Assembly (NCBI GenBank): GCA_043822925.1 | Contig: JBDRBF010000040.1 | Span: forward strand, 1-22,241 | Reading direction: 5' to 3' | Source of the DNA: a bacterium | GTDB lineage: Bacteria; Babelota; Babeliae; Babelales; RVW-14 | DNA length: 22,241 bases | Shown: positions 4,042 through 13,250 of the stretch, piece after piece | Layout: the number at the start of each line of letters is the position of its first letter | How positions within the stretch are numbered: the first letter of the stretch is position 1 | The notes under the pieces: model-generated | What the model saw: only the letters and a program-made list of their open reading frames with translations | What the model was told of the DNA's origin: nothing | The model's database searches: none | Made by a program: the position numbers and the translations under genes

Positions 4042-6249
4042 GTGAATTTGTTTTTTTTGAATAAGTTTTATATAAAAATATCTGTATTATTTTTTGCGAT
4101 AATTATAAATATTTCTTTTTTTAATGTGATTGTGTGTGGCGAAAATAAAAACGATTTTGAGCAAAAACTTAATGCACGTCAGGCTGTGCTTGAGTTAATT
4201 AAAGATTTAAATTTACGGACATTTGATAGAGATGATGATCATTATGATTGCCAAACGCTCCAAGAATATATTGAATTGTGTTTGCAGTTAATTTTGAACC
4301 CTAAGCCGGTTGAGCTTCGTGAGAATGCTTTTAAATTTTTAAAAGTAGGTGCTCACATAAGCGATGCTCACGAGAATCAAGGACAAGTACAAAAACAAGA
4401 AAATGGGCTTGCATCGTGCAGGAGTGATAAAAAAGATAATGTTACGTGGCAAAATCTTGATCTTTTTTCTTCACAAGAAAAAAATGCAAATTACGTAGCC
4501 AAAGCGCTTGACCGAATGTGTACAGAAATTGGTCGTGTTGTATTTTTTGAGCAACTTGCATATCCCATAATCGGTGTCGATATTCTTAAAAAGCGTCAAA
4601 ATATTATAAAAACATGTGTTCAAAATACAGAATTGGCAGAGCATCTTGATGCGTTGTTGGTTCGCTTGCAAGAATCAGAAAAAGTTATGCTTTCTTTTTG
4701 GGATAACCAGGGGATTGGAAGAAGTTTTCAGTATAACCTAGAAGGTTATCACGTTGTTGGAAAATGGTTACAGAATGTTTATGGTTTAAAAGAACTTAAT
4801 TCAAGTAAGCATGCGTTATTATTAAAAAATATTCGTGACTATATTGTTAGCACTATTGGTGTAACGACTGGTGCCATTTCAGCAGCCGTACTAATTTATT
4901 ATGGTGCTCGGCTTGCTTTTAGCAATGTTAATTTGCCAGGTCTAGAAGATCGTGCAGGCAGAGCGTGCGGTTCGGCAGGTCTTGAGTTTCCGTACTTGTG
5001 GGATTTTACAAATAATCGTTGGGTGCGTTCGTCAGTTGCCCTAACTGGGGGTGTTTTGTGTGCTGTCGGCACATGGGAAAATATAAAGCAAATGCGTAAT
5101 AACGTTTTAATCGAGCAGGCAGCATATATTTTTATGCTTAATATTGCGCGTTATTTGTCTATAAGTAAAAAATTATATGGGTGCATAAAAACGAGCGATA
5201 TTTTGTATAAGTTTGAGGATTTTGCGGGGCTCATAAAGTTTTTTGAACAAGATATAAAAACAGATGAGCAGCTGGGCGAGCTTATGAATCTTATAGAAAC
5301 AAGTACGCTTCAGGGCAGCGGGAAGAATTTGGAAAATATTGAGATTCTTTTTAACCGTGGCGTTGTAATACGTTTTTTTGATCTTTTTATAAAAGAGCAT
5401 GAAAAATTGCATGCCATGATGATAGCTATAGGCAAACTTGATATGTATGCGTCGTGTGCAAAATTATACAAAGAATTTGAGCATAAACAGGTGTGTTTTT
5501 GTTTTCCTGAGTATGTCGAGACTCAAAAGCCGTTTATTAAAATGCAAGAATTTTGGCATCTATTAATAGATAGCGAAAAAGTTGTTTCTAATAGCGTTAC
5601 GTTGGGCACTGACGGGCAGAGACAAAACCTGATAATTACGGGCCCCAATGCTGGTGGCAAATCCTGTATTTTAAAAGCGGTGACCCTGAGTTTATTATTG
5701 GCTCAAACGATTGGGATAGCTCCAGCTAAATCGTTGGCATTTACGCCGTTTAAATTAATTTCGACGTATTTGAATATAGCTGACGATATTAATGCTGGTA
5801 GTTCGTTATTTAAATCAGAAGTGCTGCGAGCTCAAGAGTTACTAGATAGAATACAGGGATTTGGGCCGGGAGAGTTTGCGTTTACGGTATATGACGAAAT
5901 ATTTAAGGGCACGTCACCTGTTGAGGGTACGGCTGCAGCATATGGTGTTGCTAAGTTACTTGGTACGCTTGATAATAGTATATGTTTGATAGCGACGCAT
6001 TTTGGGGTGCTGACAGAACTTGAACAGGAAACAGATAATTTTAGTAATTATAAAGTTACGGTAAATAAGCGTCAGGCCAGAGTTCTTGGGGGCGTTAGCA
6101 TAGAGTACCCGTTTAAGTTAGTTACTGGGCTATCAGACCAGCATGTTGCCCTAGATATACTTCAGAATGAGGGGATTACGGGCTCAGTTGTCCAAGATGC
6201 AAAAAAAATTATTGATAAACAAAATATAGTTTTATTGAAAAAGAGTTGA
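4042..6249 (+). CDS. MutS-related ATPase (partial lever region + domain V) with N-terminal signal/TM and internal hydrophobic segments; not canonical MutS1/MutS2
   Basis: Walker A ITGPNAGGKS, SSLFKSE, Walker B YDEIFKGT, IATHF, T.IGR lever-type motif; no mismatch-binding or Smr domain recognisable. GTG 4042 follows GGGAG. Confidence 0.85.
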   Translation: MNLFFLNKFYIKISVLFFAIIINISFFNVIVCGENKNDFEQKLNARQAVLELIKDLNLRTFDRDDDHYDCQTLQEYIELCLQLILNPKPVELRENAFKFLKVGAHISDAHENQGQVQKQENGLASCRSDKKDNVTWQNLDLFSSQEKNANYVAKALDRMCTEIGRVVFFEQLAYPIIGVDILKKRQNIIKTCVQNTELAEHLDALLVRLQESEKVMLSFWDNQGIGRSFQYNLEGYHVVGKWLQNVYGLKELNSSKHALLLKNIRDYIVSTIGVTTGAISAAVLIYYGARLAFSNVNLPGLEDRAGRACGSAGLEFPYLWDFTNNRWVRSSVALTGGVLCAVGTWENIKQMRNNVLIEQAAYIFMLNIARYLSISKKLYGCIKTSDILYKFEDFAGLIKFFEQDIKTDEQLGELMNLIETSTLQGSGKNLENIEILFNRGVVIRFFDLFIKEHEKLHAMMIAIGKLDMYASCAKLYKEFEHKQVCFCFPEYVETQKPFIKMQEFWHLLIDSEKVVSNSVTLGTDGQRQNLIITGPNAGGKSCILKAVTLSLLLAQTIGIAPAKSLAFTPFKLISTYLNIADDINAGSSLFKSEVLRAQELLDRIQGFGPGEFAFTVYDEIFKGTSPVEGTAAAYGVAKLLGTLDNSICLIATHFGVLTELEQETDNFSNYKVTVNKRQARVLGGVSIEYPFKLVTGLSDQHVALDILQNEGITGSVVQDAKKIIDKQNIVLLKKS

Positions 6250-6338: not shown

Positions 6339-6414
6339 GCCAGGGTAGCTCAGGTGGTAGAGCAGAAGACTGAAAATCTTTGTGTCGGCGGTTCAACTCC
6401 GCCTCCTGGCACCA
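6339..6414 (+). tRNA. tRNA-Phe (GAA)
   Basis: 76 nt; acceptor GCCAGGG/TCCTGGC, D arm AGCTCAGGTGGTAGAGC, anticodon loop CT-GAA-AA, T loop TTCAACT, encoded CCA. Confidence 0.98.
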
Positions 6415-8633: not shown

Positions 8634-10040
8634 ATGAAGATATCAATCGTTACTGTTTTTCCAGAGCTATATACACAGTTTTTTACGACGAGTATTTTGG
8701 GCCGTGCCATAGAAAAAAATCTTATCGAGTTTAATTTGGTGCGTTTGTCTGATTTTGTAAAACCAAAAGAACGCATTGATGAGCCAACGTGTGGCCCAGG
8801 ACCGGGCATGATTATTAAGCCTGACGTTTTAGAGCGGGCGTTAATGGCTTGCGAAGAAAAGTGGGGAACGGGGTATCGTATATTTTTTTCGCCACAGGGC
8901 GTGACGCTTAATCAAAATATTTTAAAAGATCTTGCACAACAAATTGCACCAGAACGAAAACTTGTGTTTAAGCAGGATTGCCCGCAAGCTTCTGAATTCG
9001 CTCAAGATGCATCGCAGGGGTCTGGCGAAAATAAAGTATCGGGGCAGAAGCAAATAGAGCATCTTGTTCTTGTTTGTTCGCGTTACGAGGGGATTGATGA
9101 GCGTGTTTTGCAAAAACATGCGGATCTTGAGCTTTCGATAGGTGACTATGTATTATTTGGGGGTGATTTGCCTGCTCAAGTACTTATTGAGGGCTTGAGC
9201 CGTTTAATTTCTCATGTTGTCGGTACGCAAGAGTCTGTTGAGTGTGAGTCTTTTAGTGGGGCGTTTTTAGATCACCCACAATATGGTTTACCGGTTGAGT
9301 GGCACGGGAAGAATATTCCAGAAGTAGTTTTGTCCGGTAATCATGCAAAAATAGAACAATGGCGCAAGCAGGAAGCCTGTAGAAAAACTGTTTTGAATCG
9401 TTTTGATTGGTTTCGGTCTAGCCAGCCAAACAAGCAAGATGTGCAGTTAGCTACAAGTATTATCCCGCACCATTATGTAGCTGTTATGCATACGCAAGTT
9501 TTAATGAAAGATGGGAGTGTTGGCCAGACGTCAGTAGCTTCGCTTGATATACATGATATAGCTCGGTCGGCAAAAGCGTATGGTTTTAAAAATTTTTTTG
9601 TTGTCTCTCCATTGGTCGACCAGCAAGAGATACTTAAGGCTTTTCTTAGTTTTTGGCGGTCTCCTGAGGGAATAGATTATAACAAGAGTCGGCATGATGC
9701 GGTTGAACTTGTTGTTTTGGTAAAAAAATTAGACGAAGTTCTTGAGAATATTTATAAGTTAGAAGGTAAAAAGCCAATTATTATTGCAACATCGGCTAAG
9801 CAAACAGAGCGGGCAGCCGTTATTGATTATTACAGTCAGGCAATTGTTTGGAAGCACGAGCGCCCAGTTCTTTTTTTATTTGGTACAGGGTGGGGTCTAT
9901 GCGACGAGGTTTTGGTTCAATGTGATTATATTTTGACACCTGTTAATGGGATGACTGATTATAACCATTTGTCCGTCAGGGCGGCTGCTTCTATAATATT
10001 TGACCGTTGGTTGGGGCTGCAACCAAGAAAAAGAGCTTAA
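8634..10040 (+). CDS. trmD: tRNA (guanine37-N1)-methyltransferase TrmD fused to a Tm1570-type SPOUT RNA methyltransferase
   Basis: aa ~1-260: SPQG, RYEGIDERV, SIGDYVL.GG, ESF, LSGNH. aa ~279-468: LDIHDIARS, GTGWGL, YNHLSVRAA. Confidence 0.93.
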   Translation: MKISIVTVFPELYTQFFTTSILGRAIEKNLIEFNLVRLSDFVKPKERIDEPTCGPGPGMIIKPDVLERALMACEEKWGTGYRIFFSPQGVTLNQNILKDLAQQIAPERKLVFKQDCPQASEFAQDASQGSGENKVSGQKQIEHLVLVCSRYEGIDERVLQKHADLELSIGDYVLFGGDLPAQVLIEGLSRLISHVVGTQESVECESFSGAFLDHPQYGLPVEWHGKNIPEVVLSGNHAKIEQWRKQEACRKTVLNRFDWFRSSQPNKQDVQLATSIIPHHYVAVMHTQVLMKDGSVGQTSVASLDIHDIARSAKAYGFKNFFVVSPLVDQQEILKAFLSFWRSPEGIDYNKSRHDAVELVVLVKKLDEVLENIYKLEGKKPIIIATSAKQTERAAVIDYYSQAIVWKHERPVLFLFGTGWGLCDEVLVQCDYILTPVNGMTDYNHLSVRAAASIIFDRWLGLQPRKRA

Positions 10041-11155: not shown

Positions 11156-11371
11156 TTATTTTTTGCGTGTAAAAAGTGTTTTAATATAGTGCCAGAATTT
11201 GTGCATTTTAGTTAAAAGTTTCTTATTTCCCAATAATATTATTCCCGCGCTAATCATAAGAACCCCTTGCAAGAAGGGAAGAAATAGGCCAATAATTCCC
11301 ACTAAAATTAATAGTATGCCAAGAATTTTTTTTCCGTATGTTTTAAGCAGATTTTCATGTTCTTTGTGCAT
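11156..11371 (-). CDS. Small membrane hairpin protein (PGPGW/DUF454-like)
   Basis: GILLILVGIIGLFLPFLQGVLMISAGIILL helix-Pro-helix pattern; GGAG upstream of ATG at 11371. Confidence 0.7.
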   Translation of the reverse strand: MHKEHENLLKTYGKKILGILLILVGIIGLFLPFLQGVLMISAGIILLGNKKLLTKMHKFWHYIKTLFTRKK

Positions 11372-11436
11372 TTTACTCTCCAAATTTTGTTTTTAAGGCC
11401 AAATGCTTGCTAATAAACGCTATTTTGGTAAAAAAG

Positions 11437-11619
11437 AAAGATCTTCATTTCGAGTATATCTTTGTGTTAAATATTGGGAAGTCGTTTAGTGGTAGTACGT
11501 TGGATTCATGTCTTTGCCAGGGCTTGGACGGGAATGCTGAGTCCCTTTATCATTGAATGTGCGAAACAATATCCTCACCAAGTATAAGGTATGTTGGATA
11601 CACTTTCGGGAAGATCTTT
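11437..11619 (+). ncRNA. Candidate rod-shaped ncRNA, 6S RNA-like, containing a tRNA-Gln 5'-half copy
   Basis: Nested colinear helices with many G-U pairs on the + strand, a central bubble and 183-nt length; folded by hand only. Confidence 0.5.
11475..11507 (+). repeat. Degenerate copy of the 5' half of the adjacent tRNA-Gln
   Basis: TGGGAAGTCGTTTAGTGGTAGTACGTTGGATTC vs TGGGAAGTCGTCTAGTGGTAGGACCCTGGACTC (11697-11729): 28/33 identical; no 3' half follows. Confidence 0.85.
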
Positions 11620-11696
11620 TATTAAAAAACATTTTTGGTAATTTGCATTGCCCAAACGCCATTTTTTTGTTAAAACTATCACATCTAAAAACGCAT

Positions 11697-11770
11697 TGGG
11701 AAGTCGTCTAGTGGTAGGACCCTGGACTCTGAATCCAGTTACAGAGGTTCGAATCCTCTCTTCCCAACCA
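11697..11770 (+). tRNA. tRNA-Gln (CTG)
   Basis: 74 nt; acceptor TGGGAAG/CTTCCCA with U1-A72, anticodon stem CTGGA/TCCAG, loop CT-CTG-AA, T loop TTCGAAT, encoded CCA. Confidence 0.98.
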
Positions 11771-11915
11771 ATAGCTCCGCTTTCAATCGCGACTTAGCAA
11801 CTCTTTTTAAATGTGGCATACTCTTTTGTTTTCATGCATCAAGGTTTTGATTTTGTAAGGGAATAATAATGGCTACTATTGTCAATCAAACGAGCGTCTA
11901 AGAAGGATTATTGTA

Positions 11916-13250
11916 ATGAAAAACTATATTGCCTGTATATTGCTCTTATTGCATACTTCTTCAGCATTTTGCGATTATCAACCAACTCCATCTAATTTAG
12001 AAGCACGGCAATGGTTTAAAGGTGCACGATTTGGGCTTTTTATACATTGGGGAATTTATAGCCAACTCGCCCATGGCGAGTGGGTTATGCAAAATCAAAG
12101 AATGTCTTTAAAAAATTATGAACAATTAGCCCCTCTTTTTAATCCGGTTAAATTTAATGCTTCTGAATGGGTTGCACTCGCAAAAGCGGCTGGAATGCGT
12201 TACATGACTTTTACAACTAAGCATCATGATGGCTTTGCAATGTTTGGCACCAAACAAAGTACGTGGAATGTTGTTGATGGCTCTTTTTATGGCCGAGATG
12301 TTTTAAAACTCCTGGCTGATGAATGTCATAAACAAGATGTTAAATTGTTTTGTTATTATTCTCAATTAGATTGGCATAATCATAATTACTTTCCTCGAGG
12401 AGATACCGGCAATTTACCCGGGCGATCGAATAATGGAAACTGGAATACTTACATTCAATATATGAACGCTCAATTAACAGAATTGCTGACTAATTATGGG
12501 AAAATAGCTGGAATTTGGTTTGATGGGTGGTGGGACAAACCATATGCGAGTTGGGATCTTTTGGCAACGTTTGATTTGATACACGCCTTGCAACCACAGG
12601 CCTTGATAGGATCTAATCATCACAAAGCTCCGTTTGAAGGCCAAGACTTTCAAATGTTCGAACAAGATTTGCCAGGAGAAAATAGCGCTGGATTTGAAAA
12701 AGAAGCCACGATAAGCACATTGCCACTCGAATGCTGCATTACTATTAATAAACATGCATGGGGTATAGATTTAATAGATGCTCACAATGAACTTAAAACA
12801 ACAAAAGAACTTATTCATGCCTTGGCTAGCGCCGCTGGCCGCAATGCAAATCTTCTACTCAACGTTGGTCCTCTGTCAGATGGAACATTTCCTCAAGATG
12901 CAAAAGAAAAATTACTCGAAATAGGTTCATGGCTTAATAAAAGTGGAGAAGCAATTTATGAAACGAGTGGCGGCCCATTGACCCCACGTGCTTGGGGTGT
13001 GACCACTCAACGGGAAAGTAAAATATATGTGCATCTTTTATCGTGGACTCCACACGATACGTTGCAGCTTCCGATTAAAAACGTACAGAAAGCATATTAT
13101 TTGAAAAATCAAGTAGCACTCACCTATGAGCATTTGTGCGATAGCATTGTACTCAAAGATATTGTTTTACAAGACCCTTATGACACAATAATAGTTTTAG
13201 AAATCGATTTTCAAAAAACTATCCCTTCTAAGAAAAAACTGACAAAATAA
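11916..13250 (+). CDS. Alpha-L-fucosidase (GH29), secreted
   Basis: RFGLFIHWG, FNP..F.A.EW...AK.AG, TKHHDGF, nucleophile motif IWFDG, LLLNVGP; N-terminal signal peptide. Confidence 0.93.
   Translation: MKNYIACILLLLHTSSAFCDYQPTPSNLEARQWFKGARFGLFIHWGIYSQLAHGEWVMQNQRMSLKNYEQLAPLFNPVKFNASEWVALAKAAGMRYMTFTTKHHDGFAMFGTKQSTWNVVDGSFYGRDVLKLLADECHKQDVKLFCYYSQLDWHNHNYFPRGDTGNLPGRSNNGNWNTYIQYMNAQLTELLTNYGKIAGIWFDGWWDKPYASWDLLATFDLIHALQPQALIGSNHHKAPFEGQDFQMFEQDLPGENSAGFEKEATISTLPLECCITINKHAWGIDLIDAHNELKTTKELIHALASAAGRNANLLLNVGPLSDGTFPQDAKEKLLEIGSWLNKSGEAIYETSGGPLTPRAWGVTTQRESKIYVHLLSWTPHDTLQLPIKNVQKAYYLKNQVALTYEHLCDSIVLKDIVLQDPYDTIIVLEIDFQKTIPSKKKLTK

Follow-up and report, generated by a model that had tools for sequence, protein, structure and literature searches.

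Upstream of an intact tRNA-Gln(CTG) gene in the DNA described here lies a copy of that gene's 5' half, which is probably the disabled original 5' part of the gene, now separated from the working tRNA by a decayed cassette with a GIY-YIG nuclease gene. The window, meaning the whole stretch that was analysed, is one complete contig of 22,241 nt (C40; JBDRBF010000040.1) from assembly GCA_043822925.1, a genome of the Babelota that is called G000 below. This genome comprises 1.52 Mb in 86 contigs, with a G+C content of 37% and an estimated completeness of 92%, and DNA identical to the window was seen in groundwater and biofilm metagenomes from several studies. Among the reference genomes, the genus is represented by this genome alone, the family by 34 others, and the order and the phylum by the same 261 genomes. 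Closer relatives were sought by scanning metagenomes for RplS, which returned sequences of at most 64% identity, with a tRNA-Gln gene nearby in one of 80 loci.

Table 1. Features around the duplicated part of tRNA-Gln(CTG); positions are those of the window.
Feature	Position	Strand	Evidence or remarks
Small membrane-protein gene (PGPGW family)	11156..11383	-	Pfam PF09656, E 1.6e-5
Old upstream region (P1)	11395..11474	+	Promoter-like TTGCTA 11407-11412, TAAAAA 11429-11434
Dead 5' part of tRNA-Gln(CTG)	11475..11507	+	28/33 identical to 11697-11729; no tRNA called
Spacer, 34 nt	11508..11541	+	Weak likeness by eye to the leader of the tRNA-Gln cassette of G023
Pseudogene of an 80-residue GIY-YIG nuclease	11542..11641	+	Profile N- and C-terminal matches; DNA matches; tblastn
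Upstream region of the working tRNA (P2)	11642..11696	+	Promoter-like TTGCCC 11648-11653, TAAAAC 11671-11676
Intact tRNA-Gln(CTG)	11697..11770	+	ARAGORN; Rfam RF00005, 67.2 bits; sole one in the assembly

The repeat and its setting

The two copies form a direct repeat of 35 nt (11473-11507 and 11695-11729, spacing 222 nt) in which 30 bases are the same (86%). Its local alignment score of 45 compares with a mean of 17.3 (SD=2.6) and a maximum of 30 in shuffled sequence (n=500). An earlier note, made by reading the letters of the window, had described this identity, including the matching AT before the tRNA, and had placed its end at the first anticodon base. Both statements were confirmed, the latter by ARAGORN, which puts the anticodon at linear position 33. 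The half copy thus spans the 5' strand of the acceptor, the D arm, the 5' strand of the anticodon stem, and the loop as far as the first anticodon base. Since ARAGORN and Rfam find no tRNA there, no T arm or 3' acceptor strand follows it, as the note had said, and no complete cloverleaf is recognised; apart from the intact tRNA-Gln(CTG), the one tRNA called in the window is at 6339-6414. The source of the copy is the CTG isoacceptor and not the tRNA-Gln(TTG) gene of this genome, which is located on contig C74. Four of the five differences in the half copy are states absent from 14 relatives and fall in stems, which is the pattern of dead sequence; the C-G pair of the D stem has become T-T.

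The junction was checked in contigs from other sequencing runs. A 698-nt contig of run X1, which may be the source sample itself, spans 11372-12069 with 0 differences, and run X2, which belongs to a different study, has two overlapping contigs (11400-11610 and 11597-11941) that likewise show 0 differences; the support comes from these two runs, the contigs of X3 and X4 not spanning 11467-11623. Because contigs from two studies cover the junction without differences, it is neither a chimera nor an assembly artefact. No contig in the sequencing runs joined the flanks into a form lacking the 222 bases. Among the 261 genomes of the phylum, G000 is the sole one with two copies of the first 20 bases of this tRNA. 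A search of the genome for a displaced 3' half of tRNA-Gln gave just one match, of 19/20 bases to the variable region and T-arm part (C64:13139-13158, E 0.02); it lies inside apparent coding DNA and is probably due to chance.

In relatives, the gene order is rplS, a conserved ORF, the PGPGW gene on the opposite strand, and tRNA-Gln(CTG). By tblastn, the PGPGW gene is upstream of this tRNA in 7 of 14 relatives' loci, about 60-150 nt away in six of them, and rplS lies within 1.5 kb of the tRNA in 4 of the 14. In the window, the PGPGW gene starts upstream of both copies, at a distance of 91 nt from the half copy and of 313 nt from the working tRNA. Judged by gene order, it is the half copy that occupies the ancestral position of tRNA-Gln, adjoining PGPGW.

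The tRNA-Gln(CTG) gene is also a point at which synteny breaks (window position about 11770; loci L026-L029): trmD, rplS, the ORF, and PGPGW are common to the relatives on the upstream side, and the genes on the downstream side are different in each relative examined (L026-L029). In the window, the upstream side includes a 468-residue ORF (8634-10040, + strand) that encodes TrmD (tRNA m1G methyltransferase, PF01746) fused to a second SAM-dependent RNA methyltransferase domain (PF09936). Next after tRNA-Gln is an alpha-L-fucosidase gene (11916-13250, + strand). Such a gene was found in one of the 34 other family genomes, at 35% identity, and its best relatives (47-57% identical) are in Acidobacteriota, Bacteroidota, and other phyla, with no shared context. 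Since it is rare in the family and its closest kin are in other phyla, the fucosidase gene was probably acquired sideways.

The regions upstream of the two copies differ more than the copies themselves do. P1 aligns with the region upstream of tRNA-Gln in G024 (L007) with a score of 22, which 0/500 shuffles reached (maximum 18), and the 80 nt before the working tRNA align with the corresponding regions of G004 (L010) and G015 (L012) with a score of 21 each (0/500 shuffles, maximum 19). Because each of these likenesses is the best of 14 comparisons and the control consisted of simple mononucleotide shuffles, they are taken as moderate evidence. Between P1 and P2 the score is 13, equalled or exceeded by 103/1000 shuffles, and there is no significant likeness. 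A consensus promoter scan flags neither region, and the elements listed in Table 1 are candidate promoters. Two upstream regions that are unlike each other and that each resemble different relatives, before tRNA parts that are 86% alike, fit a replacement from another lineage.

A decayed nuclease gene between the copies

The half copy and the intact tRNA are separated by 189 bases. When this intervening DNA was searched against the 261 genomes, nearly all matches fell on 11600-11650, and in G045, G239, and G252 they hit, at the DNA level, the 3' ends of intact genes (E 1e-6 to 4e-6 per genome). The matched segments are the last codons of small ORFs whose products end in ...YLKSGSGR.F.K.HF. In these intact relatives the protein consists of a GIY-YIG catalytic domain alone, of about 80 residues, with PF01541 scores of 49 and 56.5 bits, the cut-off being 22.6. 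By tblastn the identity is 48% over 29 residues, and Pfam gave no hit to the remnant at E<=10.

A family profile was built from 19 intact relatives. Its positions 65-80 match 11591-11638 on the + strand (8.2 bits), and its positions 6-21, which contain the ...YVGYT motif, match 11557-11604 on the same strand in another frame (5.0 bits). Taken singly, both matches are weak, and the N-terminal one is significant only together with the adjoining C-terminal match; a genome-wide control was run on 59,976 translated windows of 317 nt, with a threshold of at least 7.5 bits for the C-terminal part and pairs taken within 400 nt. The C-terminal match of the pseudogene was the sole one in the genome at that threshold, N-terminal-like matches occurred at 17 places, and the sole N-then-C pair within 400 nt was the locus described here; the chance of a random N/C pairing is about 17 x 400 / 3.04 Mb = 0.002. 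Since the profile pair is unique in the genome and is joined by the DNA matches, this stretch is assigned, on its sequence, to a decayed GIY-YIG nuclease gene.

No full-length open frame is left. Codons 1-21 are at 11542-11604, with a TGA at 11554-11556. Approximately profile positions 22-69, which amount to about 48 codons or roughly 140 nt, are missing, and the frame shifts near 11605; the terminal 11 codons (11606-11638) then run to a TAA at 11639-11641. An intact copy of this subtype is absent from the genome. The spacer that precedes the pseudogene is possibly the collapsed remnant of a hairpin leader of the kind that precedes intact cassette genes. On the opposite strand, an ORF at 11486-11662 encodes 58 residues and is basic and featureless.

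If a cassette is taken to be a nuclease gene of this subtype at most 200 nt from a tRNA gene on the same strand, the window locus is one: the pseudogene begins 34 nt after the dead tRNA part and ends 55 nt before the working tRNA, all on the + strand. It is also bracketed by a partial copy of its host tRNA (the 33-35-nt repeat), but of the 5' end of that tRNA, where relatives have the 3' end. The breakpoint is sharp, the intervening DNA being unlike the flanks, the rest of the genome, and the relatives' upstream regions. It has no other copy elsewhere in the genome, is unlike the DNA that precedes tRNA-Gln in 14 relatives, and has no match in phage or plasmid collections. Tandem duplication of neighbouring DNA was considered as its source and rejected, since it resembles neither the flank before the old promoter nor the flank after the tRNA (472/500 and 359/500 shuffles as good).

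Two further small GIY-YIG genes of G000, both of a subtype other than that of the pseudogene, are located on C2 (35307-35630, + strand) and C57 (reverse-strand 5597-5950, with the profile match at forward 5883-6104). On either side of them are repeats of the form CGTCATCC...hairpin...GGATCC, which are similar to the NTS/SRM motif that PMC11893778 gives for Ssn nucleases.

Nuclease genes beside tRNA genes in the family

The nuclease subtype was found in 26 of the 34 other family genomes, with 1-8 matches each. Internal stops are present in 10 of the 66 matches listed, and truncated matches are common as well. In 24 of the 30 loci that were fetched (L198-L227), the nuclease gene is preceded on its own strand by a tRNA gene at a distance of 71-194 nt; some of the six loci without a tRNA end at contig edges. 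The host tRNAs span at least 11 isotypes, including Gln, Glu, Asn, Asp, Ala, Leu, Thr, Ser, and Arg, and in all 24 loci the nuclease gene is behind the tRNA. By this proximity, the nuclease gene family is tied to tRNA genes across the family.

Four loci (at tRNA-Ala, tRNA-Thr, and two tRNA-Arg genes) carry a 16-23-nt copy of the tRNA 3' end about 45 nt past the nuclease stop, exact in three cases and 16/17 in the other. In three loci that were read closely (L215, L225, and L227; tRNA-Thr and two tRNA-Arg), the ends of the cassette are complementary inverted repeats. From its boundaries, the tRNA-linked GIY-YIG cassette has the look of a mobile unit about 450 bp long; example loci are L211, L215, L225, and L227.

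At tRNA-Gln(CTG) itself, 5 of 25 other loci, and G030 in addition, have an intact nuclease gene 137-170 nt behind the tRNA. Two genomes of one genus differ in this respect: G049 has the cassette, G050 lacks it, and their flanks share 88.7% identity as far as 10 nt beyond the tRNA. In G050 (L250), tRNA-Gln is followed by a hairpin rich in GC (CTGTCCGCCATAGC...GCGACGGCGGAGG), and no nuclease gene lies closer than 1.5 kb. This hairpin is of the cassette-flanking kind and may be a solo remnant. Behind tRNA-Gln(CTG) of G011 (L026; C14:1-9500) there are an intact nuclease gene, a second full-length match, a copy that a frame shift breaks in two, and a short piece of the C-terminal end; this stack suggests that one site was entered repeatedly.

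Of the tRNA-Gln(CTG) loci that were examined, just two have a nuclease remnant upstream of the tRNA: that of the window, where it ends 58 nt before the tRNA, and that of G022, where the distance is 31 nt. In G022 (C10; L008/L252), the C-terminal remnant (...LKSGSGRAFLQRHS) lies about 31-82 nt before tRNA-Gln and abuts the end of an unrelated gene. An intact layout, with a dead 5' part, a nuclease gene, and a live tRNA in that order, was found in none of the 261 phylum genomes; the 5'-type layout is represented in this phylum by two remnants, those of G000 and G022.

Origin of the locus and comparison with known systems

Most likely, a cassette with one gene, that of the 80-residue nuclease, entered tRNA-Gln(CTG) at the anticodon loop. 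Its far end would have supplied a replacement upstream region and 5' part, which, joined to the old 3' part, would form the working tRNA; P2 would have come with the cassette. As long as the nuclease gene was whole, the repeats would have been about 360 bases apart. The gene would later have decayed by gaining a stop codon and losing about 140 bases internally, and the old 5' part would have gathered its four private substitutions. The same reading has a variant in which the nuclease induced a break that was repaired sloppily. We infer the order of these events and, between insertion and break repair, favour insertion at the anticodon loop, since it takes one insertion followed by decay and explains how tRNA parts that are alike come to have upstream regions that are not. 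Today the half copy would have no function of its own, and would at most form part of a long leader if the old promoter still fires.

An unlikely alternative that nevertheless deserves weight is that the cassette first stood behind a complete tRNA-Gln, as it does in G011, G017, G023, and G049, and that tandem duplication or amplification was followed by deletion of the 3' half of the first copy and of the cassette leader. The five other tRNA-Gln(CTG) loci with a nuclease gene behind the tRNA are consistent with this, as is G011, which has exactly the upstream synteny of the window and carries a stack of further copies and fragments downstream, and SegB-driven repeats of a tRNA with a truncated nuclease gene are documented for phage T6 (PMC13096335). 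More events would be needed, however (one duplication and two deletions), and no relative has a second tRNA-Gln behind the cassette. An in-place copy moreover predicts upstream regions about as alike as the tRNA halves, and P1 and P2 cannot be aligned while the tRNA parts are 86% alike, so duplication in place does not fit. Much less probable again is a decayed tandem tRNA duplicate, or a scar of illegitimate recombination, with the nuclease gene merely nearby. The synteny break downstream of tRNA-Gln and the fucosidase gene next door, with its rarity in the family and its kin in other phyla, would suit such a history, but the gap between the two copies is taken up by the nuclease pseudogene in the same orientation, and coincidence is unlikely since the nuclease family is tRNA-linked in 24 of 30 loci. 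Gradual decay, furthermore, would not produce an abrupt edge at which identity drops from 85% to nothing. We give very little credence to the scar of an integrase-borne island or prophage attached at tRNA-Gln. In its favour, tRNA genes are reportedly classic attachment sites and the downstream gene content is variable. Integrase scars at tRNA genes usually duplicate the 3' part, however, and the earlier note was fair in calling a 5' half atypical of them: here a 5' part with a separate upstream region is duplicated, and only 189 bases lie between the repeats. Neither a recombinase gene nor 3'-part repeats were found at the locus, no integrase or recombinase family was found by Pfam in the 17 window ORFs scanned, and the phage and plasmid collections gave no match. 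Of the options that the earlier note had offered, a decayed tRNA duplicate or att scar came closest, but with a small GIY-YIG nuclease cassette as the partner in place of an integrase element.

Its other options gave the half copy a role in an RNA, as part of a structured RNA, at the head of a mini-element, or as a partner of pre-tRNA-Gln, and these found no support. The note had described an RNA rod in which an arm at 11538-11572 is complementary to the fragment, GAGTCC (11539-11544) being the complement of GGACTC in the tRNA; that hexamer is indeed there. Within the 140 nt that follow, the half finds its best partner at 11538-11569 (-18.4 kcal/mol), and dinucleotide shuffles give a mean of -18.1 (SD=2.8), 413/1000 being equal or better, so that the arm pairs no better than chance; of random genomic 140-mers, 773/2000 pair with the half as well as the real arm does. 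The supposed arm overlaps the start of the broken protein-coding gene. A functional structured RNA of about 190 nt containing the tRNA half (a regulatory RNA, for instance, or a divergent one like 6S), or an RNA antisense to pre-tRNA-Gln, is accordingly given next to no weight, even though a promoter-like site lies directly before the rod, 6S RNA was not found in the genome with RF00013 (SRP RNA is present elsewhere, on C83), the rod (191 nt) folds slightly above its shuffles (z = -1.79), and the 5' half of the working tRNA pairs with 11516-11546 at -25.3 kcal/mol. Against it, 8/200 shuffles fold as stably as the rod, and the wider stretch of 281 nt has a z of -0.09 on the + strand and 0.00 on the - strand; the duplex with the working tRNA is matched by 97/1000 shuffles. 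Rfam, run on the whole window at the gathering threshold and on 11200-11900 at E<=10, returned only the two tRNAs and two chance-level rows. The intervening stretch is conserved in none of the 260 other phylum genomes save for the 3' end of the nuclease gene, and its sequence is accounted for by the broken coding gene. A divergent 6S RNA as the identity of the rod was dropped after the fold and duplex controls.

The preferred reading, a dead 5' part cut off by a nuclease cassette, removes a tempting false lead, in that the supposed tRNA-derived structured RNA would be the fossil of a gene. More tentatively, and nearer to possible than to probable, the locus may be the fossil of an undescribed minimal mobile element of a few hundred bases, with one 80-residue GIY-YIG gene and hairpin ends, that enters tRNA genes and rebuilds them from a spare part. 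If this is true, the sole tRNA-Gln(CTG) of this bacterium runs on an upstream region and 5' half supplied by the element, and the host cannot lose the element's remains. If mobile, such units would be among the smallest self-contained elements known, and would show how selfish DNA can enter essential genes safely by carrying a replacement part along. The wider point is that a small GIY-YIG gene follows many tRNA isotypes across a phylum of small-genome bacteria, often bracketed by copies of tRNA ends and often decayed. For annotation, the rule would be that where an orphan tRNA fragment lies near an intact gene for the same tRNA, the space between them should be inspected for a small nuclease gene or its remains. 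The cassette family is apparently undescribed: a limited full-text search found no published account of chromosomal tRNA-linked mini GIY-YIG cassettes, and one may exist.

Four known systems invite comparison. Group I introns interrupt bacterial tRNA genes in the anticodon loop, as the locus does, and GIY-YIG genes are common passengers of such introns. Here, however, the "intron" would include a second 5' half, no splice is needed since the downstream tRNA gene is complete, Rfam brought up no group I intron when 11200-11900 was searched at E<=10, and each possible 3' junction is preceded by T or C where a group I intron would have G. Integrase islands at tRNA genes share with the locus a partial tRNA copy beside an intact gene, a gene that is rebuilt on entry, and a hotspot of variable content. 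They differ in having a recombinase, for which there is no counterpart here, and in measuring kilobases against a few hundred bases; in the window, it is the 5' part with its upstream region that is duplicated.

The Ssn family, the second closest of the four, comprises small GIY-YIG nucleases that are site-specific for single-stranded DNA and whose genes, according to PMC11893778, are flanked by hairpin-forming repeats. The cassettes of the relatives are likewise bounded by hairpin or inverted repeats; the repeat motif differs, and tRNA is mentioned 0 times in that paper. The genes of G000 that do have Ssn-like repeats, on C2 and C57, are not of the pseudogene's subtype.

The closest published parallel is SegB and the other free-standing GIY-YIG homing endonuclease genes of T-even phages, which share with the cassettes a lone GIY-YIG nuclease gene adjoining tRNA genes. 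SegB is a phage GIY-YIG homing endonuclease; according to PMC13096335, the surroundings of phage tRNA genes (within 1 kb) are enriched in its homologues, and its activity yields tandem units of a tRNA gene with a truncated segB. The cassette proteins differ from SegB in being about 80 residues long, with the catalytic domain alone, and in being chromosomal in bacteria. The cassettes differ further in their hairpin or inverted-repeat ends and in the short copies of tRNA ends that accompany them in four loci.
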